Positions 145 to 19,574 of a DNA stretch of 24,254 nt are shown piece by piece. The position numbers and the translations under genes are program-made. The notes beneath the pieces were generated by a model that had not been told where the DNA came from, made no database searches, and worked only from the letters and a program-made list of their open reading frames with translations. Each line of letters begins with the position of its first letter. The first letter of the stretch is position 1. Source of the DNA: Archangiaceae bacterium (GTDB taxonomy: Bacteria; Myxococcota; Myxococcia; Myxococcales; Myxococcaceae); the NCBI GenBank assembly GCA_043750125.1, contig JAYVCD010000449.1, forward strand, positions 1 through 24,254, written 5' to 3'.

Positions 145-2600
145 ATAACTTTTGGTCCGGGCTCACGCTGTGCGTCGTCTTGTCATGCCTTGTCGGCTGC
201 AGCGTCAGCCTCGAGGCGAACCCCGAAGGGCTGCAGTGTGACCCGGGTGGGGTCTGCCCCACCGGCTTTCTGTGCATCAGCGGCAACGTCTGCCACGCGG
301 TCAATGGCGCGGGAGGCGGCAGCGGCGTCGGCGGAGGCAGTGGTGTCGGCGGAGGCAGTGGTGTCGGCGGCGGCAGTGGCGTCGGCGGCGGCAGCGGTGT
401 CGGCGGAGGCAGTGGCGTCGGCGGCGGAGCAGGGGATCCTTGCGCCGGAATCAGCTGCACCACGCCCCCGGGCCCGGTCTGCAAAGACGCGAGCACCCTG
501 ACCACGTTCGCCAACTCGGGAACCTGCAGCAACGGCCAGTGCAGCTACACCTCGAGCCAGACCGCGTGCGCCAACGGCTGCAGTGCGAACATGTGCCAGA
601 ACCAGAACCTCTGCGCGGGCAACACCTGCATGGCGCCCCCGTCCCCCACCTGCATGGGCACGATGGTGCGGACCTTCATGTCCCCCGGCACGTGCAACAC
701 CGGCACGGGCGTCTGCACCTACAATCCGATCGACACTCCGTGCGCCAACGGCTGCTCGGGCGGCGTCTGCGTCACCCCCGGGCAAGTCTTCACCCAGACG
801 ATGCCGCGGGTGAAATTCGCGGTGAACTCGGTGGACCAGGCCCCCGGCTCATCGGGGACCCACGTGTTGGTGGTGGGCGACAACGGGAACATCGTGAAGT
901 GGGACGGCACCGCGTTCACCCGGGTCACGTCCACCGCCGCCTCGACCAGCAATTTCAACAGCGTCTGGTTCGCCGGCGTGAACACCGCCTTCGCGGTCGG
1001 CTCTGCGCGAACGGTCGCCCGCTACACCGGCACCAGCTACGCCCAGATGCCTTCAGTTCCCGGAAGCGGCGGCGCGAACTTCAGCGCCGTGCACGGGCGC
1101 GATGAAGCGGCGTTCACCGTCATCGACGGCACGGACAACTACTGGCGATTCGACAGCACCGCGGTTCCCAGTTGGAGCGCCGGAACGGTCACCAAGAACG
1201 CCCTCAACACCCACAAGAACTTCGCGGTTTTTGTCGATTCTCTGAACCGACTGCGCATCGCCGGCCAGAAGACGGTGGTGGCGACCAGCGTCAACACCGG
1301 CGTGGTCCACTACTTCGATTCGAGCACGTGCGTGGCCGGCTGCGCCGACGAAGACCTCACGTCCTCGGACCCGTTCTCCGCGGTCGGTGGGCCGGCGATC
1401 GACGGCGGCAGCGTCCTGCCCGACTCGGCATTCCTCGGGCGCTCGACCAGCTCTGCCCTTCGTCTTCACAACGACCAGGGGAAGTTCGGCCCGTCGGGCT
1501 TCACGCTGCCTACGAGCAACGGAATCGTCGCCATCACTCCGGGAAGCAGCGCGACCCGCCAGGTCTACTTTCTGACCCGGGTTCCCACCGGTGGAGTGGG
1601 CCACCTGTACCGCTATTCCGGATTGAACGACGCGGTCGATCCCGACCCGCTGGGCGACTTCTATTTCGACAAGGTCTCGATGAGCCGCACCGAGAGCGGG
1701 GGAGTAATCATCGCCGAAACCGACTCGGCCAAAGGGGTCAACAACATCTACCGGCGCAGCTCGGTCGCCTCGGAAATGCTCGACCTGGGAGAGAGCTGGA
1801 CCGCGCTCAGCAGCGCCGGCGGGACCCTGGTCCTCGGCAGTATTTTCGGCGACCTCGCGGCCCGCGCAATCGGCTCGAACACCTGGCAGCTGCGCCGCGG
1901 TCCCCGCGTCACCATCACCGACCTCGCCGCCGCCAACGGGACCGGAGTTCTGGTCGCCGGCAAAGCGGGCAAGCTCTCGCGATTCAAGTTCAACGCCTTG
2001 ATTCCTGACAGCGTGCCCATCGCTTCGGCCACCACCAACGACTTCAACGGCATCTGTCGGCTCAGCGACACCGAGGCCTACGCGGTCGGAAACGCGGGGA
2101 CCATTCGCAGCCTCAACACCACCGTGCCCAGCGCCGCCACGATGACCTCGGGCACCACCCGGAACCTGCTCTCGGTCGACTGCGTGAGCCCCGGAAGTGC
2201 GTTCGCCTGCGGACAAGCCGGAACGGTGCTGCGTTTGAGCGCCGGCGTGTGGTCGGCTCTTCCGATGGCGTTCCCCAACCTCGCCGTCGACCTCACCAGC
2301 TGCAAAGTGCTCAACAACGTCCTCTGGGCGGCCGGGGATAACGCGTTCTACAAAATCGATCTCGCCGCGGCGAGCCCGGTCTGGCAGTCGCTGCCCTCGC
2401 AGTCGCGGCTGTCGAGGCTCAACGTCCTGGGTCCAGGCGACGTCTACGCCATCTCGGCCAACACCCGGGTCGTGCGCTTCGATGGAGCCAACTGGAACAC
2501 CCTTTTTACTGCCACCACCGGCAGTCTGGTGGGGGGTGGGCAATTGGGCGGGAAAGTGGTATTCGCCGGCTCCCTCGGGACGGTGGTGGAAGGGTTGTAG
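141..2600 (+). CDS. Large lipoprotein with a Gly/Ser linker, Cys-rich repeats and WD40/YVTN-like beta-propeller repeats
   Basis: 819-aa ORF. Signal peptide with lipobox LVGC, (GGGSGV)x6, two Cys-rich modules, then recurring blades such as FNSVWFAG..AFAVG, LLSVDC..AFACGQAGTVLR and VVRFDGANW. Confidence 0.85.
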   Translation: MNNFWSGLTLCVVLSCLVGCSVSLEANPEGLQCDPGGVCPTGFLCISGNVCHAVNGAGGGSGVGGGSGVGGGSGVGGGSGVGGGSGVGGGSGVGGGAGDPCAGISCTTPPGPVCKDASTLTTFANSGTCSNGQCSYTSSQTACANGCSANMCQNQNLCAGNTCMAPPSPTCMGTMVRTFMSPGTCNTGTGVCTYNPIDTPCANGCSGGVCVTPGQVFTQTMPRVKFAVNSVDQAPGSSGTHVLVVGDNGNIVKWDGTAFTRVTSTAASTSNFNSVWFAGVNTAFAVGSARTVARYTGTSYAQMPSVPGSGGANFSAVHGRDEAAFTVIDGTDNYWRFDSTAVPSWSAGTVTKNALNTHKNFAVFVDSLNRLRIAGQKTVVATSVNTGVVHYFDSSTCVAGCADEDLTSSDPFSAVGGPAIDGGSVLPDSAFLGRSTSSALRLHNDQGKFGPSGFTLPTSNGIVAITPGSSATRQVYFLTRVPTGGVGHLYRYSGLNDAVDPDPLGDFYFDKVSMSRTESGGVIIAETDSAKGVNNIYRRSSVASEMLDLGESWTALSSAGGTLVLGSIFGDLAARAIGSNTWQLRRGPRVTITDLAAANGTGVLVAGKAGKLSRFKFNALIPDSVPIASATTNDFNGICRLSDTEAYAVGNAGTIRSLNTTVPSAATMTSGTTRNLLSVDCVSPGSAFACGQAGTVLRLSAGVWSALPMAFPNLAVDLTSCKVLNNVLWAAGDNAFYKIDLAAASPVWQSLPSQSRLSRLNVLGPGDVYAISANTRVVRFDGANWNTLFTATTGSLVGGGQLGGKVVFAGSLGTVVEGL
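312..419 (+). repeat. Coding tandem repeat, 6 x 18 bp (GGGSGV)
   Basis: Six in-frame 18-bp units that differ only at synonymous positions. Confidence 0.95.
435..770 (+). repeat. Two tandem Cys-rich modules of about 55 aa
   Basis: DPCAGISCTTPPGPVC...GTC...C.Y....CANGCS..MC versus NLCAGNTCMAPPSPTC...GTC...C.Y...CANGCS..VC. Confidence 0.85.
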
Positions 2601-2640
2601 ACGGTGGGCGGGATTTAAGAGGGCAAGGGGAAGTCCTAAA

Positions 2641-4011
2641 ATGGAGCTGGATCCGCGCTTCAAGATTCGCGCACCGCTGCGTTGTGAGGGAATTGGGCGG
2701 CTGGACTGCGCCGAAGACCTCGAATCGGGAATGAGAATGGCGGTGCGTTGGCTGCCTCTGGAAGCCAATGGTTCCGCGGCAGTACAGGCGTGTGAGCAGC
2801 TCCCCGAGCACCCGACACTGCCCCGGATTCGGCAGATCGGCCAGATGGGCGCCTCTGCCTACGTGGCGATGGATTTTCCCGACGGGAACCTTCTCGCCAC
2901 CCAGCTGCACGAGGTGCAGTCCGCGGCCAGCCTGATTGGGATTACCGCGCAGATCGCCGACGCCCTGGCCACCATCCACATGCAGGACGTGGTTCACGGC
3001 GAGATGTCGGCCGACTCAATCTTGATCGTCAGCGGACCTTCCGAAAAGGCGTACCTCTGGGACATGCCGCTGGTGATTGCCAACCGGGTCACCGACCGCC
3101 GGGGTGAAGACCGACTGATGCACCAGCTGGTGAAGACCGCTGCCTTCCTTTCCCCTGAGCGCGCGCGTGGCTCGGCCCCCACCCCCGAAGGCGATGTCTA
3201 CGCCCTGGGCGCCATTGTCTGCATCGCCGGCGGGGCCCCGCTTCCTCCCGGCCAGAACACCCTCGCGGTCATCCACTCGGTCGCCGTGGGCACCTGGGTT
3301 CCGAAAGTTCCCAAATCGCTTCCTGAGCCCCTGCGCTCGATGCTCGAGCGGATGATCGCCCGCGATGCGTTTGCCCGTCCCACAGCGCGCGAAGTCGCCG
3401 AGCTGTTCATGCCTCCGGTCGCCGCCCACCGCACCGAGCCTGAGCTGCCCGCGATCGTCTTGCCCGCGGCGGTCCCGGTGGAAGCGCAGTCCGCCCTTCA
3501 GCCTGCGACCGACCCGGTCCTTCCGAAAGTCGAGAGCGCCGTGCAGCTGACCGACAACATCAGCGTGTCCCAGGATCTCGCCGATGCCGGCGCGGCGCTG
3601 TTGTCCCCCGACGAGGCCGCGTTTCTCATCCGTTCCAACCGCAAAGTCCCGCTGAGGATTGCGGCGGCGATGGCGGTCCTGGTCGTCGGCTTGAGCGCGT
3701 TGGCCGTCAATCTGTCGCACCGAAAGGGTGGGACGGAAGCCTCCCCGACGGGAACCCAGCTTGCCGTTCCGACTCGCACCACGGTGACGGTCACGGCTCT
3801 GGCCCCTCTCGATTTTGAAGCCTCCTCTGACGATGAGCTGTTTTCGTTGACCCCGCGCGTCAAGAAGGTGGCTGCGAAGAAGCGCGCTCCGAAGGCGGAA
3901 GTGGCAGCCCAGGACTCCGATTTCGTTCCGGGAATGACCGGCGATCCCGCCCTGAAGGGTGAGTTTGGTTTCCTCGAAGAAGAGCCGGAATTGAAGCGCC
4001 CGACTTTCTAG
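2641..4011 (+). CDS. Membrane-anchored Ser/Thr kinase-like protein, probably a pseudokinase
   Basis: ATG at 2641 follows a purine-rich AAGGGGAAG. The Hanks C-lobe is recognisable (FLSPERARG, DVYALG, P.PLRSMLERM...RPTA), but the catalytic motifs are degenerate (MAVR, HGEMSADSIL, DMP). TM helix IAAAMAVLVVGLSALAV. Confidence 0.85.
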   Translation: MELDPRFKIRAPLRCEGIGRLDCAEDLESGMRMAVRWLPLEANGSAAVQACEQLPEHPTLPRIRQIGQMGASAYVAMDFPDGNLLATQLHEVQSAASLIGITAQIADALATIHMQDVVHGEMSADSILIVSGPSEKAYLWDMPLVIANRVTDRRGEDRLMHQLVKTAAFLSPERARGSAPTPEGDVYALGAIVCIAGGAPLPPGQNTLAVIHSVAVGTWVPKVPKSLPEPLRSMLERMIARDAFARPTAREVAELFMPPVAAHRTEPELPAIVLPAAVPVEAQSALQPATDPVLPKVESAVQLTDNISVSQDLADAGAALLSPDEAAFLIRSNRKVPLRIAAAMAVLVVGLSALAVNLSHRKGGTEASPTGTQLAVPTRTTVTVTALAPLDFEASSDDELFSLTPRVKKVAAKKRAPKAEVAAQDSDFVPGMTGDPALKGEFGFLEEEPELKRPTF

Positions 4012-4039
4012 TTGGCAGCGCCTCGCCAAACATTATGGT
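4012..4039 (+). promoter_or_regulatory. Putative sigma70-type promoter for a near-leaderless transcript
   Basis: TTGGCA-N16-TATGGT ends 9 nt before GTG 4049, which has no Shine-Dalgarno. Confidence 0.35.
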
Positions 4040-4048
4040 GCGCGCGCT

Positions 4049-5095
4049 GTGCGCGCCCCACTGACCGAAGCTGAGCTCGATGCTCGCCTGGCTGCTCTTG
4101 GTCTGGTGAGAGACGATTCCGTCGCTGCGCCTCCGCCGAGCAAGAACCGCACGGTGGTCTGTCGCAACGGTCGTCGCCGGGTGTTGGTGAAGGTCGCCGA
4201 CGGGCCGGGAAACGTGGGCGTGCTGCGCGAGGGCTCGATTCTCGAACGGGTCGCGCCGCTGGCCAAAGAGCCCGACGCGCCGCTGCTGATTCCTGGAATC
4301 TATGCCTTTGACCCCGGCAACGGGCTGCTCGCGCTTCACTGGCTGCAGGGCGGTGAGACGCTCCATCACTTTCATCGCCGCAGCGGCGACTACCCCCGCC
4401 AAGTCGCGCGGCAAGTCGGCAAGGCGCTCGGCTACCTTCACCGCGCCAGCCACGACGCGCCCGGTCGATTCGCGCTCGCCGACGCGTTTCGCGATGAATC
4501 CGACCTGCTCGAGTGTTTCTTGCGGATGCGGCCCGACTTCTACGCGCGGCTGTCGGGGGTCGGCGTCGAGCTCTTCTCGCAGGTGCAGGCCGATGCGCCG
4601 GCGATGGCCGGGCTTCAGGCGCTCAGTGAGCAGCAGGCCAAAGAGAGCGAGGCGTGCCTGGTCCACGGAGATCTTCGCCAGGCGAATCTGCTTCGGGTGG
4701 GCAAAGACCGAAACGCCCCGGTCTTCTTTCTCGATTGGGAATTGTCGTTCTGGGGCGACTCGGCCCGAGACCTGGGCAGCCTGTTTGCCGACTACGTCAG
4801 CGCCTACCTCGCGCCCGAGCACAAGAGCGAGGTGCTCACCCGCACCGAGCTGTCGACGTTCTGCCGCGCGCTGATGGCCGCCTACGCCGAGGCGCGGGGC
4901 GAGTCGTTCGAGCTGACCGACGAGTTTCAAAATCGGGTGGTGCGGTGGGTCGCGACCGCTCTGCTGATCGCCGTCTACGGCATCTCTCACTACGAGCAGC
5001 AGCTCGACACCCGCGCGCGCGGCCTGGCGCAGCAGGCCCTGGACATGCTGGCCGCCCCCCAGTCCTGGCCCGCGGTGTTGTGGGGTGCCCCGTGA
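4049..5095 (+). CDS. APH/choline-kinase-family phosphotransferase (LanK/LxmK/TvaC-like)
   Basis: Intact motifs VLVK, LVHGDLRQANLL and FLDWELSFWGDSARDLG. Its stop overlaps the next start (GTGA). Confidence 0.85.
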   Translation: MRAPLTEAELDARLAALGLVRDDSVAAPPPSKNRTVVCRNGRRRVLVKVADGPGNVGVLREGSILERVAPLAKEPDAPLLIPGIYAFDPGNGLLALHWLQGGETLHHFHRRSGDYPRQVARQVGKALGYLHRASHDAPGRFALADAFRDESDLLECFLRMRPDFYARLSGVGVELFSQVQADAPAMAGLQALSEQQAKESEACLVHGDLRQANLLRVGKDRNAPVFFLDWELSFWGDSARDLGSLFADYVSAYLAPEHKSEVLTRTELSTFCRALMAAYAEARGESFELTDEFQNRVVRWVATALLIAVYGISHYEQQLDTRARGLAQQALDMLAAPQSWPAVLWGAP

Positions 5096-6006
5096 CTCTG
5101 CTCGAAGCGTTTCGAGAGCTCGAGCCGCAGGTGGTGCTCAACAAGTCGGTGCTCGCGCTCGAGGGCGTCTCTCACCGGGCCGAGCAGGCGCACGCGGCGC
5201 TCTCGTCCTGGATGTTGTCCCACTGGCTCAGCCGCCGACCGGGCCCTGCGCCCAAAGGCGGTCGGGCTTCCGGAGACTCCGGCTGGGTGGCCCACCTGCA
5301 ATCGCTGACGCGCGGCGCGTCGGGTTGGGAGCCGGGCTACACCCTGGTCCGGGTCGGCGAGTCCGACGGCCTCACCGGGCGACGCGGGCAGTGGGCGTTC
5401 GTCTCGGACGGCCGCTTGAGCCTGTTCCTCGACGAGCCGGGCCAGTACTCGCCTCCTTCGGCGCTGCCGGGTGAGAAGGTCAGTGTCCGGGTTCCCCGCG
5501 CCCGCGAAAACCTGACCCCCCATCGGTTCACGCTGCTGGGAAATCACGGCTCGCCTGCTCCCGGCGAACGGGTGAGCAAGCTGTTCGTCGCCGCTTCGCT
5601 CGAGGCCGCCGCGCAGCTGGTGGCGACGCTGTCCGCCCGCAGCGCCGACGGGCTGCGCTTCTCGCTCTTCGTCAGCAACGAGCCGCGCGATTTCGAGCGC
5701 ACCGACAACCTGGTGATCGACGTGGCTTTCCGCGACGAGCCCGCCACGGTGAGGTTGTTGGGTGACTTTTTCAAAGCGCAAAGCGGGCGACTGCTTGCGC
5801 TCAAGCCTCCGCTGCAGGCGCAGCAGGTGGTCCCCGGAATCTCGAAGACCGAAATCACCGCCCCCGAGGATTCGGGTGACGGCTACTTTCGAAGGCGGGC
5901 GGATCAGCTGGCCGCGGTGGTGCTCGATGCCCTGCACGCAGGCGAAGTGACCGCGGCGCAGTGGGCGGCCCGGCTCGCGCTCGAGAGCAAACGCCAGGGA
6001 CTTTGA
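5092..6006 (+). CDS. Divergent HopA1-family protein (LanY-like phospho-elimination lyase candidate)
   Basis: GTG at 5092. The motif order matches my recollection of HopA1 proteins: GWEPGY, DGRLSL, GEKVSVRVPR..ENLTP, FSLFVSNEP.DFERTDNLVI, VPGISKTE, YFRRRADQLA. It is paired with an APH kinase. Confidence 0.7.
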   Translation: MTLLEAFRELEPQVVLNKSVLALEGVSHRAEQAHAALSSWMLSHWLSRRPGPAPKGGRASGDSGWVAHLQSLTRGASGWEPGYTLVRVGESDGLTGRRGQWAFVSDGRLSLFLDEPGQYSPPSALPGEKVSVRVPRARENLTPHRFTLLGNHGSPAPGERVSKLFVAASLEAAAQLVATLSARSADGLRFSLFVSNEPRDFERTDNLVIDVAFRDEPATVRLLGDFFKAQSGRLLALKPPLQAQQVVPGISKTEITAPEDSGDGYFRRRADQLAAVVLDALHAGEVTAAQWAARLALESKRQGL

Positions 6007-6039: not shown

Positions 6040-6729
6040 GTGCTCGCCCCACTGATCGCTGCGCTGCTCGGAATCCTGCTCGGCGTTCGCCATGCGTTCG
6101 AGCCGGACCATCTGGCAGCGGTCTCGACCCTCGCCGGAGACGAGCGCTCGGTCAAAGGCGGCCTCTTCCTCGGGGCGGTGTGGGGCCTGGGGCACTCGAT
6201 TGCCTTGCTCGGCGTCGGAGGCTCGCTGGCGGCGATCGAAACCCAGATGCCCGTTCCCCTCGCCAACGCCTTCGAGCTCGGGGTGGGAATGATGATCGTC
6301 GGCCTCGGCCTGCGGGCCATCGTTCGCGCCGTCCGCGAAGGCCGGCGCGGAAGGGTGCAGTCCCACCGTCATGGACCCGTGCTTCACACCCACTCCGCCG
6401 CGGTTTCCCACGTGCACGTCAGCCGCTGGACCCTGGCCACCCGCCCCCTGCTCGTCGGGTTGGTTCACGGCCTCGCCGGCAGCGGAGCCCTCACCGCGCT
6501 GGTGTTGGCTGAGCTGCCCACCGTCGGCGCGCGACTGACCTACATCGCCTTGTTCGGCGCCGGCAGCATGGTGGGCATGGCGATGCTCAGCGCCCTGTGC
6601 GGAGTGCCTTTGGCGAAGCTCCAGCGCGCTCCCCGACTGATGGCCGCCTGCCTGCTGGGCATCGGAGTGCTCTCGGTCTGCACCGGCGCCTGGTGGACCC
6701 TGGGCGCCGCCGAACGGCTGTTCGGTTAA
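6040..6729 (+). CDS. NiCoT/UreH-like nickel/cobalt permease
   Basis: RHAFEPDH (HX4DH), WGLGH, a His-rich loop SHRHGPVLHTHSAAVSHVH, GLVHGLAGSGA, and about 6 TM helices. Confidence 0.85.
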   Translation: MLAPLIAALLGILLGVRHAFEPDHLAAVSTLAGDERSVKGGLFLGAVWGLGHSIALLGVGGSLAAIETQMPVPLANAFELGVGMMIVGLGLRAIVRAVREGRRGRVQSHRHGPVLHTHSAAVSHVHVSRWTLATRPLLVGLVHGLAGSGALTALVLAELPTVGARLTYIALFGAGSMVGMAMLSALCGVPLAKLQRAPRLMAACLLGIGVLSVCTGAWWTLGAAERLFG

Positions 6730-6744
6730 CGAAGCGAGGCTCGA

Positions 6745-7290
6745 ATGGAGTCTGGCCGCAGCCCCCCGCGCGAGGGGACCCGCCTCAAGCTCATCGCCAC
6801 CCTCGGGCTGGTCGCCTTGCTGGCTGCGGTCGCATTTCGTTCCGTCCATCAGCGCCCCCGCGTTCGAGCCGCCCCCGAGCTGCTCGCCTACCAGGGTCGG
6901 GTCGGCGAGCTTTCCCCCCAGGAACAGGAACGCTTCGCCCTGATTCAAAAAGAGATTCGCCAGGCCGAGCGGGCTCGTGCTGCGACCCACGCCTGGCCCA
7001 ATCTTTTCGAAGTTCCCGGTTTGCCCTGGGTCCACTTGGGAACGGGGCTCTACGTCAACTACCTCGGGATTCCCGCCGAGCCCGATCGGCTTCGATGGCT
7101 GGTGTTGTTCATCGAGCCCGAGCCCGCGGCGCTCAAAGAGCCTGCTCCGCCCGAGGACCTCGAGCATCACACCCTGTCCGACGGAACGGCGTTGCACGTC
7201 TCGGTCTGGACCGCTGAGAACACCGGCCCGGTGAGCACCACCGTCCTTCCATTCCCAGCCGCAGAGAACTGGACTCAGCGGGTTCAGTGA
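6745..7290 (+). CDS. Membrane-anchored hypothetical protein, DUF6162-like
   Basis: GAGG RBS and an N-terminal TM helix. The pattern LLAYQ..LSPQEQ.RF..I, YLG, VW, NWTQ resembles DUF6162 as I recall it. Confidence 0.65.
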   Translation: MESGRSPPREGTRLKLIATLGLVALLAAVAFRSVHQRPRVRAAPELLAYQGRVGELSPQEQERFALIQKEIRQAERARAATHAWPNLFEVPGLPWVHLGTGLYVNYLGIPAEPDRLRWLVLFIEPEPAALKEPAPPEDLEHHTLSDGTALHVSVWTAENTGPVSTTVLPFPAAENWTQRVQ

Positions 7291-7439
7291 CCCTTTTGGG
7301 GATTGCGTTCGGACATCGGCGGCCGCGCAAAGTGGCCAGAGTTCCTTCACACTCAGCCACACCGTTGCGCCAACCTTGCCAGCCGTGGAGCACCGTCATC
7401 GCAGGCGCCGGGATCAATTTCACCCCCTTGCTTCGCGCC

Positions 7440-8230
7440 CTCTTGAATGCAAACCAATCACTACTTCGACAGGACAGCTTGGTTGAATCTGTGCACGGGC
7501 CCCGGGTGCTTCCGGGCTAATGCTAATGATTGTGAGATTGATCATGCTCGACTTCGCACGAAGCAGAAGAGCCGTTCTTCGTTTCTCTACGGATATTCAG
7601 GGTCTGTTTTCTGTTCGTTCCACATCGATTTGAGCAAATCGAGGACTTAGTCGAGGCTCACGACGAGGTGGTCAGGATCAATTTGGACACCCCGAACGCG
7701 ACCTGCCAGATCACGATGCAGGTCACACCGGTCCCGACAATGCGGATCGGGCAAATGGTAAGTCATGTGCAGTCGGTCTTCATAGGGCAGAAGCAATACA
7801 ATCGATTCGCCCTCAAAGTTCAATTGGCTGACGCTGTGTTCTTCCCACACTCCTTCTTCTGGTTTGCTTGTGTTGGGTAGTCCTTCGTTCTTGTTCTGTA
7901 ACTGATTTGTAAGTGTTTTGAGAAAGTTAAAATGGTCGTCCCAGACTGTGCTTTGACGTTCGGCAAGGTTCCGACAGTTCTCAAACAAATGCTCGAACTC
8001 AAGGTAGTTGATCTTGCGTTTGAGGCGCACTGAGAGCTCGTCGAGCGCGGTGATATATCCTCCCAAGTACGCTGCGCTCATGGTGAGCGAGAGCTGCTCG
8101 CCATCGACGAAAAAATTAATGATTGGAAAGGCGATGGCTTCCCTGTGATAAATTCTAATTCCGAATTTATTAATGTCTACGATGAGAGTTTGAGTTATTC
8201 TGTAGCCAAATCAGACTGGCCATTGGAACT
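7440..8230. other. AT-rich foreign or decayed insert between convergent operons
   Basis: Hand counts give 24/60 GC at 7861-7920 and 22/60 at 8101-8160, far below the flanks. No integrase or IS is visible. Confidence 0.75.
7647..8081 (-). CDS. Low-GC hypothetical protein, possibly a remnant with a lost start codon
   Basis: 144-aa ORF with AT-rich codons. The frame stays open upstream to 8210 (ITQTLIVDINKFGIRIYHREAIAFPIINFFVDGEQLSLT) with no ATG/GTG/TTG. Confidence 0.5.
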   Translation of the reverse strand: MSAAYLGGYITALDELSVRLKRKINYLEFEHLFENCRNLAERQSTVWDDHFNFLKTLTNQLQNKNEGLPNTSKPEEGVWEEHSVSQLNFEGESIVLLLPYEDRLHMTYHLPDPHCRDRCDLHRDLAGRVRGVQIDPDHLVVSLD

Positions 8231-8297
8231 CAATCTCGTCGTCTGTTCTCGGTCGGATGGCAGACATTCAGGCAAATGGGGTCGGGGATGAAAACCC

Positions 8298-8822
8298 TTA
8301 GACCCACCGTTCCCGCTGGCGCAGCGCATACATCGGCGCCGCGCCCAACAACAGTCCCAGGGACAGCCCGAACAGCCCCAGCGCTCCGGCCACCACACAC
8401 CCCAGCGCGCCGGTCAGCCCCGCCAGCACCGCGCCCGCCAGCAGCTCGTGCCAGCTGCCGCGCAATGAAGAGCCGACGAACAGCCCGGCCACCAGCCCGC
8501 CCACCACGCAGGTCGCGATGAACAACGTGCACCAGGTTCCGGTGGCACAGGCGTGTCCTCCCAGCGCCGCGCAGACTCCGAGGGAAAAGGGAGCCAGTCC
8601 GGCCAACACCCCCGGCAACACCACCCGCCCCATCCGTTGTCCCCGCCAGAGCAGGCCGACGGCAACCACCGCCAACAGCGCTCCGCAGATGAGAGATCGG
8701 GCCAGACAAGCGCAGCTCAAGCACGACAAGGCGGTGAGCGCGGGGACGAACAGCGCCAGCCGAAGCGCGTTTTTAAGCCGCCCCAGCTCGTAGGCGCGGC
8801 GTGCGGATTCAACGAGGACCAT
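8298..8822 (-). CDS. Cys-rich polytopic membrane protein, putative anti-sigma factor
   Basis: ATG 8822 overlaps the end of the ECF gene. About 5-6 Gly-rich TM segments and 9 Cys (SCLSCAC, HAC..WC..ATC, LGC). Confidence 0.75.
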
Positions 8823-9333
8823 GTTTCTCACTCCAGGCCAGGCGAAGGCGCCCCAGCGTCCGCTCGACACGTTTGCGAAAAGTGGCCCCGGGAAGACGTT
8901 CGCCCCGCGCGACCCGCATCAGGGTGTCGAGATCGGCTGCGTCCATCGTCCCCAGAACCTCGACCACCGCGGCGCTCAGCTGCGCGGCTTCAACTTCTTC
9001 TTCAGGGCTGCGCGAGGGGGCCACGTGGCTGGCGAGCACGTCCGCCGGCTCTTCTTTGCGGCGCTGCGTCTTCTTCCGCGCGGTCCGCACCTCGTAGGCT
9101 GCGATTCCGAAGGCCCAGGACAGCGCGTCGAGGCTGGGGTCGAACTCGGTGGCCCGCTCGAAAATTCGCAGCAGGGCCCCCTGGGTCACGTCCTCGCAAT
9201 CACAAGCGCAGATCTGCCTCGAGACGAACCGCTGCAGCAGCGGGCTCAAGACATCGAAGACCGGGCGGAATGCCGAGCGATCGCCGTCGCTCAAGCGCGT
9301 CATCCACTCCTGCAGCTGGAGTCGAGGGTTCAC
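8809..9333 (-). CDS. ECF sigma factor with CxCxC and a shortened sigma4
   Basis: GAGGA RBS before GTG. Sigma2 motifs GDRSAF, EDVTQ, FDP and SWAFGIA; C-terminal [15 protein letters not shown]. Confidence 0.85.
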
Positions 9334-9353
9334 CCGGTCCTCTTCACATCACG

Positions 9354-9476
9354 TTATGGGCAGAACGGGCAGCACCAGCCCGACGCGGTGGCGGCGGCCT
9401 GTCCAGCCCAGGCCAGCGCGGGAATGGCGGCGGCGGTCACTGCGAGCATCCACGGCTTGAGGATGAAGCGCTTCAT
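9354..9476 (-). CDS. 40-aa secreted peptide ending in WCCPFCP
   Basis: AAGGA RBS 5 nt before ATG. Sequence [40 protein letters not shown], with a basic N-terminus, hydrophobic core and A-W-A cleavage site. It ends 20 bp before the ECF start. Confidence 0.75.
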
Positions 9477-9644
9477 TTTGGTCCTTGGTTTCGAGGGAGC
9501 CCCAATGCCCCCGGCCAAGTAGGCCCACCGGTTCCGGAACGTGACCTTCGGGCAGTGGAAAAACCGTACGCCACTGAAAATGACCGTGCTAGGAGCGGCG
9601 CAGTTTCTCCCCGCTTTTTCGCCTGCAAAGTCGAAGGAAAACCC

Positions 9645-11192
9645 ATGCAAATCCGCGCCGACGAAATCAGCCGCATCATTCGCGATCAGATTCAGGACTA
9701 CGGGAAGAAGGTCACCATCTCGGAGACCGGCACCGTGCTCTCGGTCGGCGACGGAATCGCGCGCGTCTACGGGCTGGAAGGGGCGCAGTCGGGCGAGCTG
9801 GTCGAGTTCGCCAATGGGGTCCGCGGCCTGGTGCTCAACCTCGAGGAAGACAACGTCGGGGTCGCGATCATGGGTGACTTCGTCGCCATTCGCGAAGGCG
9901 ACACCGTCAAGCGCACTCAGCAGATCGCCTCGGTGCCCGTTGGGAAGGCGCTGCTGGGCCGGGTGGTCGACGCGCTCGGAGCTCCCATCGATGGCAAGGG
10001 GCCGATTGTCGGCGCCGAGCTCAAGCGACTCGAAGTGAAGGCGCCCGGAATCGTGAAGCGCAAGTCGGTGCACGAGCCGATGCAGACTGGAATCAAGGCG
10101 CTCGACGCGCTGGTTCCAATCGGTCGCGGTCAGCGCGAGCTGATCATCGGGGACCGGCAGACCGGGAAGACCGCGGTCGCGATCGACGCGATCATCAACC
10201 AGCGCGGCCAGAACATGTTCTGCGTCTACGTGGCGATCGGCCAGAAGCAGTCGACTGTCGCGCAGGTGGTCGACAAGCTCACCCGCCACAACGCGATGGA
10301 ATACACGATCGTCGTTGCGGCCAGCGCGTCGGACTCTGCCCCGATGCAGTTCTTCGCGCCCTACACCGGGGTGACGATGGCCGAGTACTTCCGCGACAAC
10401 AAGATGCACGCGCTGATCATCTACGACGACCTGTCGAAGCAGGCGGTCGCGTATCGCCAGCTGTCGTTGTTGCTGCGCCGGCCCCCGGGCCGCGAGGCGT
10501 ACCCCGGCGACGTCTTCTTCATTCATTCCCGCCTGCTCGAGCGCGCGGCGAAGCTGTCTGATGACCAGGGCGCTGGCAGCCTCACCGCGCTTCCGATCAT
10601 CGAGACCCAGGCCGGCGACGTGTCGGCGTACATCCCGACCAACGTGATTTCGATTACCGACGGGCAGATTTTCCTCGAGACCGACCTCTTCAACTCGGGC
10701 ATCCGTCCTGCGATCAACGTCGGTCTGTCGGTCTCGCGCGTCGGCTCGGCCGCGCAGATCAAGGCGATGAAGCAGGTCGCCGGCTCGATGAAGCTCGAGA
10801 TGGCGCAGTACCGGGAACTCGCGGCCTTCGCCCAGTTCGGTTCGGACCTCGACAAGGCGACTCAGGACATTCTTTCCCGCGGCGCTCGCCTCACCGAGCT
10901 GATCAAGCAGGGCCAGTACGAGCCGATGTCGGTCGGAAAGCAGGTGATGCAGATCTACACCGGCACCAACCGTGACGATCCCGGCAAGCGCGGCTGGCTG
11001 CGTGAGATTCCGGTCACCGATGTCGTGCGCTACTCGAAGGAATTTCTCTCGTTCTGCGACGCGAAGTTCCCCAACCTCGAGAAGAGCATCATCGAGAAGA
11101 AAGAGCTCACCGCCGAAATCAAGACCGAGCTGAACAAGGCGATCACCGAGTTCAACGCGATCTTCCAGAAGACCCCGGGCGCGAAGCTCTGA
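9645..11192 (+). CDS. atpA: F1 ATP synthase subunit alpha
   Basis: [24 protein letters not shown], Walker [38 protein letters not shown]; 515 aa. Confidence 0.98.
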
Positions 11193-11569
11193 TGCGAAAG
11201 ATTGCCCTTTGCCTTGCCGCGCTGGTGCTCGCGGGCTGCGCGCTGCGTCCGCGGTATGGGCAATTCGTCGGCAAAGAAACCCGCGCGCCGGTGAGGCTGC
11301 AGCTGCTCGAGAAGCAAAGCGGCCTCCCGGTCTCGGGCGCGGTGATCGAAGTGGGAGACAATCGGAAGGTCACCTTCAAGACCGATGAGCACGGCGTCTT
11401 CACCCTGCCGGTGGATCCTTTGCTGCTCAGCGACAACGCGCTGATTGTAGTCACCGCGCCCCGTGGCGTCAGCCGCACCCAGCTCGTTCCGGTCCCAGCG
11501 CCGGAGCTGCCGATGACTCGGCCACAGCCGGTCTTCGAAGTCGTCGACGGCGGAACCTCCACTTACTGA
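11192..11569 (+). CDS. Small lipoprotein with a carboxypeptidase-regulatory-like (prealbumin-fold) domain
   Basis: TGATG overlap with atpA; lipobox LAGC; motif G.PVSGAVI...KTDEHGVFTL. Confidence 0.8.
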   Translation: MRKIALCLAALVLAGCALRPRYGQFVGKETRAPVRLQLLEKQSGLPVSGAVIEVGDNRKVTFKTDEHGVFTLPVDPLLLSDNALIVVTAPRGVSRTQLVPVPAPELPMTRPQPVFEVVDGGTSTY

Positions 11570-11586
11570 AGCCGCGGGGCGAAGGG

Positions 11587-12144
11587 TTACTTCGACTTCT
11601 TCTTTGCAGCCTTGACCGCCGCGCCGGGCTTGAGCGGGACATCGCAATGGATGAACCGCCCGTCGATGAACGCGGCGAGGTACTTCCCGCCGGGGTGCCA
11701 GTAGACATTGCCCAACTTCGAGTCTTCGTGAAGGCCTGAGGCGTAGCAGACCGATTTTTTTCCACCGGCTTCGAACGCGTACCCGGGTCTCTCTCCGTCG
11801 AGGACCAGCTCGGTCAGCGCCCGGGCTCCGTTGGGGCCGGACAACGACGGCTTGGGCAGCCCAACCGCGTTCTTCCAGGCGTAGGGGGCGCGGTTCACGT
11901 CGGTGTAGCGGGCGCAGGAAAACACAGAGCCCATCCGTTCGAGCTCATTGAGCTCTTTGGGCCAGCTGGGGGGAATCGAATCTTCGGTGATGCAGAAGAA
12001 CAGCTCGGTCAGATCGTTGGGGCCTGAGACCGACTGGTAGATGAAGTAGCTGCCGTCTTTGGACCAACCGTAGAACGTGTCGCTGTCGGCGAGCGAAGGC
12101 AGAGCGAAGAGGCAGATGCCGAGGAAGGCAGTGCGGAGGTTCAC
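11587..12144 (-). CDS. Secreted hypothetical protein
   Basis: Signal peptide ending SLA-D. WSKDG and WHPGG turns resemble propeller blades; Lys-rich tail; 4-bp overlap with the upstream gene. Confidence 0.75.
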   Translation of the reverse strand: MNLRTAFLGICLFALPSLADSDTFYGWSKDGSYFIYQSVSGPNDLTELFFCITEDSIPPSWPKELNELERMGSVFSCARYTDVNRAPYAWKNAVGLPKPSLSGPNGARALTELVLDGERPGYAFEAGGKKSVCYASGLHEDSKLGNVYWHPGGKYLAAFIDGRFIHCDVPLKPGAAVKAAKKKSK

Positions 12145-13148
12145 GGGCTGGGCTCGTCCGGCGCCGCCACCGGCGCGGGCTTGACCGGCGCGGAACCTTC
12201 GCCGCCGCCGCCCATCTTTGCTTCTCGCGCCGCTTCGTCCGCAGTCCCGCCCACCGCCTCGATGCTCGTCTTCGGCATCTTGGCCTTCCCGGCGGCGGCC
12301 ACCGGCGAGGCGACCTTCACCGCGCGATCAAAGGCCAGCGCGGCATCTCCGACCTTGGTCGGAGTCGTCTGCCGCAGCTGCCTTCGCACTTTCGAAATCA
12401 CCAGCTGCACCACGTTCGGGTCCGGGTGCCGCTTCAGCGCCTCGACCCAGGTCTCGATCGCCTTCTCGTTCTCGCCGGCTTCCGCGCGCAGCTTTCCCGC
12501 CTCGAACAGCGCGTGCGGCTGCAGCTCTGAATCGGGAAATTTTTCAGCCAGCGATTCGAACGCCTTGAGCGCCTCGGGGTGCTTTCCGTCCATCATCGCC
12601 AGCGCCTGTCCGCGCAGCAGCAGCGCGTCATCGACGTAGGGCGAAGTCTCGAACTTGCGCACCATGCCCGCCGCTTCGAGCTCGGCCTGCTGGTAGTCGG
12701 CCAGCTCGAAATACAGCTTGGCCACCCGGTACGACAGCTCGGCCGACTGGGGGGGATTGCGCGCCAGCGCCGCGGTCAACTCGGTGATGGATCCCCGCAG
12801 GTCATGAAACTGGGTCTGAAGAATGTCGGCCAGGTGCAGTCGACCTTCGAGCGTCTCGGGCGCTTCCGGACACAGCTGGGACAGCTCGCGGTAGACCTCG
12901 ACCGCCCGCTTGAAGTCGCGCAGCTCGAGGTAATAGATGTCGGCCGCTCCCCGCAGGGCCCGAGCCCGGTAGACGGCCGCTTCCTTCGATTCGTCGCGGT
13001 CCAGCGAGTCGAGGGTGAGCCGGTATTCCTCGAGCGCCGCCTGGGGTTGGTGGATGTAGAGCTTTTCACGGGCGTTCTGCAGCCGAGTCGGAGCGTCCGT
13101 GCGCTTGCACGCACAAAGGCAAAGCAGGGCGGCAAGAAGAAATCGCAC
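12141..13148 (-). CDS. TPR-repeat lipoprotein (BamD/CpoB-like repeats)
   Basis: AGGA RBS before GTG 13148; lipobox LCAC; TPR units such as YRVAKLYFELADYQQA, FETSPYVDDALLLRG and FPDSELQPHALFEAG. Confidence 0.85.
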   Translation of the reverse strand: MRFLLAALLCLCACKRTDAPTRLQNAREKLYIHQPQAALEEYRLTLDSLDRDESKEAAVYRARALRGAADIYYLELRDFKRAVEVYRELSQLCPEAPETLEGRLHLADILQTQFHDLRGSITELTAALARNPPQSAELSYRVAKLYFELADYQQAELEAAGMVRKFETSPYVDDALLLRGQALAMMDGKHPEALKAFESLAEKFPDSELQPHALFEAGKLRAEAGENEKAIETWVEALKRHPDPNVVQLVISKVRRQLRQTTPTKVGDAALAFDRAVKVASPVAAAGKAKMPKTSIEAVGGTADEAAREAKMGGGGEGSAPVKPAPVAAPDEPSP

Positions 13149-15135: not shown

Positions 15136-15217
15136 ATCGTCCCAAGTGTCGCCCGCCCTCTGACTCAACACAAACGCCGTGGCAGTGGTCCGCGGCAGCA
15201 GTTATGGTTTCGCCCCC

Positions 15218-15835
15218 TTGGCCACCGACGATCTCACGCTCGTTCAGCGCGCCAAGACGGGGGATCAGCGGGCCTTCAAGGCGCTGGTCGAACGGTACCA
15301 ACGCAAAGTCTATTCGGTCGCGCTGGGCATGCTGAAGGACCGCGAAGAGGCACGCGACGCCGCTCAGGAAGCCTTCATCAAAGTCTACAAGTACATCGAG
15401 CACTTCAAGGGCGACTCGAGCTTCTACACCTGGCTCTACCGCATCACGGTGAACATCAGCATCGACATGATGCGCAAGCGAGGCAGCGCGAAAGGTCCGC
15501 ACTTCGAGTTCGACGAGACGATCGCCAACGACACGACCGAAGCGAACATCGGCGCGCTGGGCACCCGGCTGGGCACCAACCCGCAGAAGTCGATGTTGCG
15601 CAAAGAGCTCGCCGAGAAGATTCAGGCCGCGCTCGCCGAGGTGCCCGAGAACCACCGCGCGATCCTCCTGCTGCGCGAAATCGAAGGGATGAGCTACGAG
15701 GATCTCGCGCGCACCCTCGGGATTCCCAAGGGCACCGTGATGTCCCGACTGTTTCATGCCCGGCTGAAAGTTCAGAAAATCCTGAACGAATACATCGAGT
15801 TGGACGAGTCGAAGTCTGGCGTCGGCACTGAATAA
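15218..15835 (+). CDS. rpoE: ECF sigma factor, Myxococcus RpoE1-like
   Basis: TTG start giving (M)ATDDLTLV. FKGDSSFYTWLYRI and a full sigma4 LREIEGMSYEDLARTLGIPKGTVMSRLFHAR; closely resembles M. xanthus RpoE1 as I recall it. Confidence 0.92.
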   Translation: MATDDLTLVQRAKTGDQRAFKALVERYQRKVYSVALGMLKDREEARDAAQEAFIKVYKYIEHFKGDSSFYTWLYRITVNISIDMMRKRGSAKGPHFEFDETIANDTTEANIGALGTRLGTNPQKSMLRKELAEKIQAALAEVPENHRAILLLREIEGMSYEDLARTLGIPKGTVMSRLFHARLKVQKILNEYIELDESKSGVGTE

Positions 15836-15891
15836 GCACTCGAGTATTTCGTCGTGACGAAGTTGCCCCGCACTTTTCAAGAAGGTTCGCG

Positions 15892-16485
15892 ATGAAAAAT
15901 CCCGCCCGTAAGACTTTCGAGCCGCTCCTGTCGCCCTACGTCGACGGAGAGCTCTCGCCTGAAGAACGACTGGCGGTGGAACGCCACATCGCGGCCGACA
16001 AGAGCAGCGCCGCCCAGGTTGCCGACTTCCGGGCCGCTTCCGGGCTGACCCGCCTGTCCTTTGAAATGCTGGCCGATGAGCAGGACTTCACCGACTTTGC
16101 CAACCAGGTGATGGCGCGGGTCACGCCAGAGAAATTGCCCCTGCTCGAACGGGTCAAGCTTTCGGTTTCCGAAATGTTCACCTACCAGCGCGGGATGCTG
16201 GTGACCGTGGGGGCGATGGCCTGTGCGCTCGCGTTGATGGCCGCCGCGGTGGTGAAGCTGTCGGGTCAGGACCCCGAGGGCTACGCGAATGCCCGGGTCG
16301 AGGTGCAGAGCGTGTCCGTCGACACCGACGCCAAGGTCCGCCCGGTGGTGATGGAAACCGAGAAGGGCGACGCGATCATCTGGATGGTCGAAGACGCAAC
16401 GGTGAAGAAGGGCGACGACGCTCGGCGCGAAGAGCTCGACCTCGAGCCGGGCCCCGATGCCTCGAAGAAGGCGGGCGAGCTTTGA
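15892..16485 (+). CDS. Transmembrane anti-sigma factor with a degenerate zf-HC2 domain
   Basis: GAAGG RBS; LLSPYVDGELSPEE...VERH motif; one TM helix; lies directly after the ECF gene. Confidence 0.85.
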   Translation: MKNPARKTFEPLLSPYVDGELSPEERLAVERHIAADKSSAAQVADFRAASGLTRLSFEMLADEQDFTDFANQVMARVTPEKLPLLERVKLSVSEMFTYQRGMLVTVGAMACALALMAAAVVKLSGQDPEGYANARVEVQSVSVDTDAKVRPVVMETEKGDAIIWMVEDATVKKGDDARREELDLEPGPDASKKAGEL

Positions 16486-18344: not shown

Positions 18345-19574
18345 ATGAAAACAGCCAACCTCGCGATCGTCTTCACCGACATCAAGGGCTTCACCGAGCG
18401 CACCAGCCGGCAAACCCTCGAGCAGAATCAGACCCTGCTGCGCACCCACCATGACTTGCTCGCGCCCGTCTTCCGCGCGTTCCACGGAAAGATCATCAAA
18501 GAGATCGGCGACGCGTTCCTCGTCACCTTCGAGTCACCGACCCAGGCGGTGCTGGCCGGGGTCGCGCTGCAAGACAAGCTCTGGTCCCACAATCGCCGCC
18601 TCGCGACCGACGACCGAATCGACGTCCGGGTGGCGATCAACTGTGGAGAGGTGAGGCTCGAGCACGGCGATGTCTTCGGCGAGCCGGTCAACATCGCCGC
18701 GCGCGTCGAAGGCCTGGCCGACGCGGGCGAGGTCTACCTCACCGAGTCGGTCTACCTCGCGATGAACAAGGCCGAAGTCCCGTCGCAAGAAGTGGGTCTG
18801 TTTGAGCTCAAAGGAATTCCGGGAAAGATTCGGGTCTTCAAGGTTCCCCATGCGCCCTACCGGGTCGCGCCGGTCGTGGGGGGCACCGAGCCGGTCGCCG
18901 TCGACGACGTTCCCCCCTATGGAAATCTGGGGCTCTCGAAGATGCCCGACGGAACCGGGGCCGAGCTCACCGCCCGGGCCGCGCAGTTGACTGCCAAGGC
19001 GATGCACGGGGGGGAAGTGCTGATGAAGCGGGCGGTGCACGGGATGAGCTCGCGGGACGGGACGGGCGCGATCACGCTCGTACGCCGGGGGGCGCCGGTG
19101 GCCCTCGCGTTGGTGGCGGTGTTGCTCGGAGTCTCGGCGGTGCGGTGGCTCTCTACGTCGGCGCTCGAGCGCGCGGTGCGGGCGGTCGAAAAGTCGGCGC
19201 CTGAAGAGAAGAACCCGAAAATCGAAGCGGTCCTCAAGTTGCTGGTGGTCGAGAAGGACCTCGGCACCCAGCAGTATTGGAGCGGGCGCTTGCAGGAAGC
19301 CCGCGATGACACCGGCGCTCTTCGGCACTACCGGGCCGCGGCGCAGCAGGGGTACACCGCCGCGGAAGACCGGTTGATCTCGTTGCTCGATCACCCGCGC
19401 TGCGAGTGGCGGGTGGCCGCGCTGGAAACCGTCGGTGAGCTGAAGCTGCTGCGGGCCCGCAGTCGGGTCGCGGCGCTGGCCGAAACCGGCGGGGCGGATG
19501 ATGTGCAGAAGGTGCTCTTCCTCGGGTGCAACTCGCGCAGCGAAGCGGCATCCGTGCTGCGCAAGCTGGAGTGA
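18345..19574 (+). CDS. Class III adenylate cyclase with a TM helix and C-terminal SEL1/HEAT-like repeats
   Basis: FTDIKGFT, KEIGDAF, GDVFGEPVNIAAR and ELKG. The metal-binding Asp pair, the adenine-specifying Lys/Asp and the Asn/Arg are all present. Confidence 0.9.
   Translation: MKTANLAIVFTDIKGFTERTSRQTLEQNQTLLRTHHDLLAPVFRAFHGKIIKEIGDAFLVTFESPTQAVLAGVALQDKLWSHNRRLATDDRIDVRVAINCGEVRLEHGDVFGEPVNIAARVEGLADAGEVYLTESVYLAMNKAEVPSQEVGLFELKGIPGKIRVFKVPHAPYRVAPVVGGTEPVAVDDVPPYGNLGLSKMPDGTGAELTARAAQLTAKAMHGGEVLMKRAVHGMSSRDGTGAITLVRRGAPVALALVAVLLGVSAVRWLSTSALERAVRAVEKSAPEEKNPKIEAVLKLLVVEKDLGTQQYWSGRLQEARDDTGALRHYRAAAQQGYTAAEDRLISLLDHPRCEWRVAALETVGELKLLRARSRVAALAETGGADDVQKVLFLGCNSRSEAASVLRKLE

Follow-up and report, generated by a model that had tools for sequence, protein, structure and literature searches.

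A three-gene myxobacterial module encoding a predicted exported Cys/Pro micropeptide, an ECF sigma factor and a putative membrane anti-sigma factor

A stretch of 24,254 nucleotides from an Archangiaceae bacterium of the Myxococcota (positions 1 to 24,254 of contig JAYVCD010000449.1 in assembly GCA_043750125.1) carries three short genes in a tight row on its minus strand. This whole stretch is called the window here. The three genes encode a predicted exported micropeptide rich in cysteine and proline, an extracytoplasmic function (ECF) sigma factor and a six-helix membrane protein that we propose as its anti-sigma factor, and we found this three-gene switch in many myxobacteria. Our preferred reading, to which we give a probability of about 0.5, is that the module is an autoregulated envelope sensor of metals or thiol-reactive stress, belonging to an ECF sigma/anti-sigma family specific to Myxococcota. 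This reading draws on the conserved position of the peptide gene, on a promoter motif shared across loci and on a modelled complex between the sigma factor and the membrane protein.

An initial annotation of the locus had described a 40-aa open reading frame (ORF) with its own ribosome-binding site, a 20-bp gap and two overlapping genes, all on the minus strand, and every one of these features was found where it had been placed (Table 1). The gap between the peptide ORF and the sigma start measures exactly 20 nt (9353-9334), and the genes for the sigma factor and the membrane protein overlap by 14 nt. Ribosome-binding sites precede both the peptide ATG (AAGGA, 5-9 nt before it) and the sigma GTG (AGAGGA). 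The ORF at 9333-8809 is the sole sigma-like gene of the module, and atpA begins at 9645, divergent from it. The description as a tight three-gene operon extends beyond the window, where the three genes recur as a conserved unit across related loci. A scan of positions 7000-10000 against Rfam gave no match at E<=1. A scan for sigma-70 promoters and terminators stayed at the level of shuffled sequence, with a single promoter-like site at 8179-8152 (-) in a low-GC stretch. The orphan ORF downstream of the module had no Pfam, PADLOC or Atlas match and is linked to the membrane-protein gene by an identical contig in two sediment runs.

Table 1. Coordinates of the module and associated features in the window.
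Feature	Position	Strand	Details
Micropeptide precursor	9476..9354	-	40 aa, ATG start, TAA stop, C-terminal end GWCCPFCP
ECF sigma factor	9333..8809	-	174 aa, GTG start
Six-helix membrane protein, putative anti-sigma factor	8822..8298	-	174 aa, ATG start
ECF-type promoter, GTCACG (9545-9540), 16 nt, CCTA (9523-9520)	9545..9520	-	conserved motif
Inserted segment with module, promoter and orphan ORF	7291..9556	.	~2.3 kb, missing in congeners
Low-GC orphan ORF inside inserted segment, downstream of module	7647..8081	-	144 aa

We collected 59 distinct sigma genes that adjoin a membrane protein of this kind, of which 54 were assessable (at least 230 nt of upstream sequence); relatives at 63-81% identity also exist, and these locus counts were taken without their context. 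When upstream regions were checked, a small ORF of this kind proved to be kept before part of the homologous sigma genes: an ORF encoding a signal peptide and a Cys/Pro-rich tail lies directly upstream in 23/54 assessable loci. One further locus (L058), with 203 nt of upstream sequence and outside the 54, likewise has the peptide. A permissive filter asked for M, for K/R within the first 10 residues, for 11 or more hydrophobic residues in a row and for 2 or more Cys among the last 25; it matched 50 of 5,444 stop-terminated segments, from 49 loci. Twenty-nine of the 50 lie elsewhere than the upstream peptide, and none of these 29 resembles a signal peptide followed by CP motifs.

Twenty-one of the peptides were read individually. 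Their precursors are 39-55 aa long and contain 3-7 Cys each, with differing spacings. The Cys are confined to the tail (0 in the signal part), and at least one Cys-Pro dipeptide occurs in 21/21. A K/R n-region, a hydrophobic core and an A-x-A site were recognized in 21/21, judged by eye, and a GGAGG-type ribosome-binding site precedes each of them. Examples of the tails are SSGCGCPFCNW, HGGCPCCPCPFCP, LPCGENCPIPCEDCPLSKR and CCPGCSGKCGGHCSGCSHCPRSHK. In the window peptide, residues 1-24 read as a Sec-type signal peptide with a K/R n-region, a hydrophobic core and A-W-A, and by the A-x-A rule the mature peptide would comprise 16 residues. Two other readings of the peptides were rejected, namely lipoproteins (no lipobox) and c-type haem sites (no CxxCH). 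Comparison of the window peptide with Pfam and NCBIfam precursor models at E<=1 gave no match save a chance one to Ecm33 (E 0.4). In the peptide loci of a second family (L016, L017, L024, L026, L031, L033 and L036), a GC-rich inverted repeat, GGCCGCGC...GCGCGGCC, follows the -10 element and precedes the ribosome-binding site. This repeat may serve as an operator or form an RNA hairpin, and it is absent from the window.

It is extremely improbable that the small ORF is no gene, whether a product of chance or a non-coding leader to the sigma operon. In keeping with such a reading, a collection of 15 billion proteins has no entry for the window peptide, and a word-based homologue search with it returned no candidate. 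Against it, the peptide occupies one fixed place in the 23 loci, compared with a background of ~0.5% of segments, its ribosome-binding sites are conserved, and the signal-peptide architecture is kept despite sequence divergence. Furthermore, 7 of 10 sister peptides are present in the same collection, having been called by other pipelines, and the only name among their cluster members is 'hypothetical protein'. An environmental relative from two sediment runs (~86% alike, 56 differences over 9081-9486) argues in the same direction, as its only indels inside the peptide ORF are two in-frame 3-nt deletions (9386, 9459). These patterns indicate that the peptide ORF is more than a chance ORF.

The second line of evidence is the promoter. 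The pattern GT[CA]AC-N14-17-[CG]CTA was found before the first gene of the operon in 44 of the 54 assessable loci, including 23/23 peptide loci. In the family it takes the form GTCACG-N15/16-(GCG)CCTA, and the first gene is the peptide gene if present, otherwise the sigma gene. Because the motif lies upstream of the first gene, the peptide gene is taken to be the first cistron. In the window the promoter lies 43 nt upstream of the peptide ATG. A motif in this position typically marks an autoregulated ECF operon and thereby points to autoregulation of the module. A scan of the bacterium's own genome gave 10 matches, against 4 for a reversed control, and the sites that stood apart were those of two family operons and one before the gene of an HMBD protein on contig C311; the others were at chance level or intragenic. 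In another genome (G012) the scan gave 8 matches against 0, with sites before the sigma gene, before a string of the membrane-protein gene and cusBA, and before a divergent OEP gene. Four other peptide-bearing genomes were scanned and had no second site above control counts, so the peptide looks like the sole output there.

Two further motif sites were noted in passing. One (L096, G012:C1:6138951-6138975, -) has the extended -35 element of the peptide operons (GTCACGTT...) and is followed after 12 nt by a small lipoprotein ORF with a Cys loop that is rhodanese-like by eye; the peptide-linked sigma factor of that genome may have its second target here. The other (L064, G000:C12, contig position 15641) is a good match inside a gene for a 2,034-aa protein with PKD, MopE-type Cu-binding-motif and M11-peptidase regions, and may be an internal promoter or due to chance.

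The third line of evidence concerns the membrane protein. Its AlphaFold model (pLDDT 85.1, pTM 0.73) has helices at 2-36, 40-59, 62-87, 96-119, 124-142 and 147-173, and its nine Cys lie at positions 34, 37, 39, 46, 84, 92, 98, 105 and 142. A family alignment of 27 sequences (A1) shows a conserved N-terminal amphipathic helix with ARRAYELGR, a GHxC-x5-C-x3-C-x-P-x-C cluster and an invariant LTGALGC. With the N-terminus predicted to be cytoplasmic, His90, Cys92, Cys98, Cys105 and Cys142 would fall in periplasmic loops or at outer helix ends, and the other four Cys, by their position along the helices, in the outer half. The conserved His and Cys are thus placed by the model on the periplasmic side, which fits the proposal of a Cys-rich membrane anti-sigma factor. 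A model of the complex between the sigma factor and the membrane protein, built from alignments A2 (34 sigma sequences) and A1, scored 0.62 (runs 0.57, 0.62 and 0.67) against 0.00 for the best control, so that binding of the two is predicted, as the initial annotation had supposed; the score mark was reached by 116/157 solved complexes and by 2/215 mismatched pairs. The three runs share 100% of their contacts, and the pLDDT of the partner is at least 73. In the modelled interface, residues 3-18 of the membrane protein and 60-62 of a cytoplasmic loop pack against residues 14-30 and 51-63 of the sigma factor, that is, the conserved N-terminal helix would lie on sigma region 2.

The membrane protein matched no Pfam or NCBIfam family. 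PF06532 (NrsF/DUF1109) matched 0/27 family members at E<=10, and hhalign against nine Myxococcota NrsF homologues gave a probability of 0.5% (E 0.11). Membership of NrsF/DUF1109 was therefore rejected for want of a PF06532 match; the genome-wide match to this model sits on contig C9 instead. There, a separate pair of sigma factor and NrsF-like protein is encoded (L068, G000:C9:3653-4833, +), the NrsF part of which has an N-terminal Cys-rich stretch. Similarly, the zf-HC2 domain of class I anti-sigma factors (PF13490) was not matched by the window protein or its 27 relatives. A Foldseek search of the model against the PDB gave no usable match (best E 1.1), and a protein atlas returned only unnamed Myxococcota clusters. 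A profile search among representatives at 50% identity found 1,060 at E<=1e-3, 784 at 1e-10 and 227 at 1e-30; among the best 150 listed of the 1,060, lengths are 125-198 aa, nearly all 165-198. Judging by these profiles, the membrane protein is a member of a large unannotated Myxococcota family and not of NrsF/DUF1109.

The window sigma factor is an ECF (group 4) sigma-70 factor of a divergent group. It matched PF04542 (Sigma70_r2) with 25.8 bits against a cut-off of 24 (E 9e-6), and TIGR02937 with 36.9 bits, below the cut-off of 42.9. The top NCBIfam match, TIGR02989, reached 49.9 bits, far under its cut-off of 124.55. The family profile matches solved ECF sigma factors over positions 4-170, from E 2.9e-10, among them 6in7_B ('sigma-H factor') and 8z6g_B at ~3e-10, SigW at 6.9e-10, RpoE of R. 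sphaeroides at 4.3e-8 and CnrH at 2.6e-5. Region 4 was not detected by Pfam, yet GATFRKR..RAL.RLR is conserved there. The sequence CACDC, which had been noted as a possible Cys sensor, corresponds to residues 46-50 within region 2. Among the 46 sigma relatives aligned, from which alignment A2 was drawn, Cys stands in its place in 0/45, which read ERDAED, SSDSED, AADGED and similar. In the environmental relative, a -1/+1 indel pair (9202, 9208) disturbs the CACDC codons. The Cys of WECRT in region 2 is common in relatives, and the window sigma factor has V there. With CACDC absent from 45 relatives and no C-terminal Cys-rich domain of the CorE type, the idea of the sigma factor as a Cys sensor was given up. 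The related claim of clustered Cys in all three products stands for this genome only, because CACDC is not conserved beyond it.

We infer the signal, the export and the function of the peptide as follows. At rest, the cytoplasmic N-terminal helix of the membrane protein would hold region 2 of the sigma factor. The periplasmic His and several of the Cys would sense a soft metal (copper being the likeliest) or an agent that reacts with thiols, upon which the sigma factor would be released; this step is proposed because of the analogy with NrsF and the metal-gene contexts of paralogues. The released sigma factor would transcribe its own operon from GTCACG-N16-CCTA, as the conserved motif suggests. 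The first and sole non-regulatory gene would give rise to a Sec-exported Cys/Pro peptide of ~16 residues that would accumulate in the periplasm. Finally, its thiolates could bind the metal and lower the signal, which would amount to negative feedback.

The case for metals comes from gene neighbourhoods. In the same genome, a peptide-less pair on C311 has genes for an HMBD protein, an OEP protein, a cytochrome c, two multicopper oxidases, a thioredoxin-like protein and ZnuA nearby. Another peptide-less pair (in G007) has a YHS/HMBD P-type ATPase and an HMA protein on one side and a YHS protein on the other, and in G012 the sigma factor, the membrane protein, a CusB-like adaptor with HMBD and an RND pump are encoded in one string. 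In further peptide-less loci, an efflux component or a metal ATPase was found within a 1.5-kb flank in 7/18. On these contexts, the family is most plausibly a metal-stress sensor, for copper or another soft metal.

Several points weigh against this account. The peptide loci themselves do not lie beside metal genes (atpA, DprA and LysM genes in family f1; DoxX, S9 and M13 peptidase genes in family f8), so the metal link comes by way of paralogues of only 33-44% identity; the peptide-bearing families f1 and f8 have only the three-gene unit in common. OEP neighbours are not metal-specific, and the subclade that lost the peptide carries thioredoxin-like genes instead (L015, L038), which speaks for thiol chemistry no less than for metals. 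Thiols in the periplasm are normally in the oxidised state, and the CPFC/CPxC motif equally fits a redox-active dithiol. Part of the complex score may stem from solved sigma/anti-sigma pairs that the model has memorized. With the genome 89% complete, the regulon may include members that were not seen, and of the 7 sequencing runs matched to the locus, none is listed as RNA.

Some of these points lead to a different signal, in which the module would sense thiol-redox or oxidant stress of the envelope (disulfide, hypochlorite, electrophiles) and not metals, with the CPFC peptide as a sacrificial or redox-active dithiol. We consider this quite unlikely. A CxxC with Pro, such as CPFC, resembles redox-active sites, thioredoxin-like genes follow the membrane-protein gene in two loci (L015, L038), thioredoxin-fold genes occur in the C311 and G012 clusters, and a DoxX gene is convergent to the module in the f8 clade. 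However, the most explicit contexts are metal-specific (HMBD, HMA, YHS, the CusB/RND pair, the P-type ATPase and multicopper oxidases), and in G012 the family promoter motif precedes efflux genes. As to arrangement, in the two thioredoxin-bearing loci (L015:1464-2284, L038:2071-2903) the membrane-protein gene is followed by an unassigned ORF of 132-139 aa and then by a Thioredoxin_7/DsbH-like gene. In L046-L056 (e.g. L047:6821-7327, 8757-12957), the DoxX gene is accompanied by divergent genes for an S9 peptidase of the prolyl-oligopeptidase family and an M13 oligopeptidase. S9 and M13 peptidases act on short peptides, so a link to the Pro-rich peptide of 20-30 residues is conceivable; this synteny is restricted to one family.

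The distribution of the peptide bears on its role. In a maximum-likelihood tree of 45 sigma factors (without L066, which duplicates L010), the peptide-bearing sigma factors fall in one clade of 25 rows, 21 of them with the peptide (support 92/85), and the peptide label requires 2 changes on the tree compared with a mean of 15 for shuffled labels. The four clade rows that have no peptide are L059, which is cut at a contig end and not judgeable, and L015, L019 and L038, whose membrane proteins have likewise lost the GHxC..C cluster. Among the 36 of 46 membrane proteins that could be extracted, the second Cys of a GCxC pair at the end of helix 5 is present in 0/19 peptide-bearing and 13/17 peptide-less proteins, the latter including L010 and L066, one gene counted twice. 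These correlations, which represent one or two events among kin, do no more than suggest that the peptide and the periplasmic Cys site are functionally linked.

A link of this kind would be expected if the peptide were a co-sensor or feedback ligand and not a bulk chelator, its thiolates completing or capping a periplasmic metal or disulfide site of the anti-sigma factor. We hold this to be possible though doubtful. The Cys pattern just described is in its favor, as is the subclade in which 3/3 assessable rows have lost both the peptide and GHxC..C, and so is the constant position of the peptide as first gene of an autoregulated operon. On the other hand, the few evolutionary events behind both correlations, with one duplicate among the 36 proteins, count against it, and the great variation of the peptides in Cys number and spacing is more in line with loose chelation than with docking at one fixed site. 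In the full form of this idea, an ECF switch would be gated by its own Sec-exported, unmodified Cys/Pro micropeptide as part of the sensor, with a new six-helix anti-sigma class in a small mobile cassette, which we likewise hold to be possible though doubtful. If true, signal perception and feedback would both pass through a diffusible peptide of 16 residues.

Known systems offer several comparisons, which we draw from excerpts of the cited papers. SigF-NrsF of Caulobacter responds to heavy metals, controls a small regulon including itself from the promoter GTAACC-N16-CGAA, and involves a six-transmembrane DUF1109 regulator of ~180-210 aa whose periplasmic Cys are needed to hold the sigma factor (PMC3511200). 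SigF/NrsF also governs exported Cys peptides, the bufferins (Buf1/DUF2282 and Buf2; PMC11626156). Bufferins are MNIO-modified peptides that bind copper in the periplasm, and their precursors have Sec signal peptides and in sizeable share are encoded away from the MNIO gene (PMC12452194). CorE-like sigma factors end in a Cys-rich domain of 28-38 aa, have a conserved CxC between regions 2 and 4.2, and work with no anti-sigma factor (PMC4937300). The background on SigF/NrsF, bufferins and CorE that the initial annotation had invoked agrees with the excerpted text of PMC3511200, PMC11626156 and PMC4937300.

The likeness to SigF-NrsF lies in its working and not in membership: a sigma gene is followed by that of a six-transmembrane protein with a predicted sigma-holding N-terminus and conserved periplasmic Cys. 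In contrast, the window membrane protein has no sequence relationship to NrsF, of which the genome has a separate relative on C9, and the promoter is GTCACG-N16-CCTA where that given for SigF is GTAACC-N16-CGAA. The window peptide also lies within the regulator operon, with no linked maturation enzymes. With bufferins, as the excerpts portray them, the module would share a Cys peptide with a Sec signal, here recognized from the sequence alone, and with the periplasm as its destination, an ECF sigma/anti-sigma pair and a link to copper stress. The mature part is ~16-35 residues in the window family, compared with roughly 60 residues in bufferins, and is rich in Cys-Pro, unlike the CKGxG-type motif of a bufferin-like precursor on contig C72. 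The window operon has no MNIO, DUF2063 or DoxX gene, and the peptide has no Pfam match. Membership of the bufferin precursors was rejected for want of a family domain among the Pfam and NCBIfam models and of a linked pair of MNIO and DUF2063 genes. CorE and CorE2 of Myxococcus xanthus (ECF44/ECF238) are, in the text consulted, myxobacterial ECF sigma factors tied to Cu, Cd and Zn with Cys as suspected sensors. The window sigma factor differs from that description in that it stops right after region 4, shows no linker CxC and is paired with a predicted anti-sigma factor in the membrane. Membership of the CorE-like group was rejected on the absence of a C-terminal extension and on CACDC, which lies in region 2 and is not conserved. 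The initial annotation did not recognise the architecture as described, and the literature searched in full text likewise held nothing matching it or the membrane family, with the supplements of the ECF reclassification (PMC7826278), which may list the sigma group, outside the search. The main text of that reclassification, in the part consulted, has nothing on the window sigma group.

Bufferins are also the model for a further explanation, in which the peptide would be the precursor of a ribosomally synthesised and post-translationally modified peptide, altered by a trans-encoded enzyme (MNIO or other) before Sec export to become a bufferin-like metallophore. The initial annotation had found no MNIO; this holds for the window and does not hold genome-wide, where one MNIO gene lies on C72. 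An MNIO gene was found in 5/5 peptide-bearing genomes checked, which together with the Sec signals and scattered location of bufferin precursors speaks for trans modification. Yet we judge this explanation very unlikely. MNIO genes occur in 31/41 relatives, including four congeners that have no module, so their co-occurrence is uninformative. The MNIO gene on C72 has its own precursor directly upstream, which is Cys-rich, has a signal peptide and, by reading, repeated C-K-G-K-G-type motifs, and a DUF2063-like gene lies downstream. The strict promoter pattern had no match on C72, the window peptide matched no precursor model at the threshold given above, and neither MNIO nor another modifying enzyme was found in the annotated peptide loci. 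The cluster on C72 itself (L067, G000:C72:3335-5400, -) has the look of a classical bufferin cluster.

The single membrane-protein sequence had matches in 8/41 related genomes, and the profile of 27 sequences in 101/363 genomes of the same order, among them 76/207 in the bacterium's own family, 23/34 in a second family and, besides this genome, 0/4 in the bacterium's own genus. A metagenome scan with the single protein gave 410 pattern matches, 0 of them confirmed, and a second with alignment A5 gave 16 loci, all relatives of ~40% identity. Both flanks (a NicO-like gene with its neighbour on one side, atpA on the other) have matches in four genomes of the same genus, and these four have no module. 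Three of them (G002, G003 and G004) have 134-177 bp in place of window positions 7291-9556, and in the fourth (G001) the two flanks are on separate contigs. GC dips to 0.54 in the inserted segment, at the orphan ORF. Because the segment is missing in congeners, the module is taken to be a small accessory cassette of the lineage. Neither an integrase nor obvious terminal repeats were noticed in the segment.

By analogy, the autoregulated envelope sensor that we prefer would work like SigF-NrsF with bufferins, from unrelated and undescribed parts and with no need for maturation enzymes. It defines a large family of putative membrane anti-sigma factors for which no Pfam model and no published description were found, and a family of predicted exported Cys/Pro micropeptides that annotation pipelines miss or call 'hypothetical'. 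Were the peptides to bind copper with no enzymatic modification, they would amount to a minimal metal buffer of the periplasm that is genetically portable, and to a simpler counterpart of bufferins. With promoter, peptide, sigma factor and anti-sigma factor in ~1.25 kb, the circuit would make an attractive orthogonal metal-sensing part. It would also offer a clean system in which to see how polytopic anti-sigma factors pass on a periplasmic thiol or metal signal.

Other genes of the window were noted beside the module. A gene resembling transporters of the NicO nickel/cobalt family and an ORF for a secreted-looking protein of 181 aa (6040-7290, +) are convergent to the module; both lie outside the inserted segment and are kept in congeners. 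On the other side, atpA (9645-11569, +) is solitary, and the next gene is not atpG and encodes a small CarboxypepD_reg-like lipoprotein. A second, ordinary ECF sigma factor with Sigma70_r2 and r4_2 is encoded further on, followed by a zf-HC2 anti-sigma factor (15179-16485 for the pair and 15892-16485 for the latter, +), and past this pair lies an adenylate/guanylate cyclase gene (18345-19574). Finally, positions 2482-6006 (+) hold several kinase-like genes in a row (Pkinase, APH), together with an ORF that weakly matches the HopA1 family of Pfam (E 4.8e-7).

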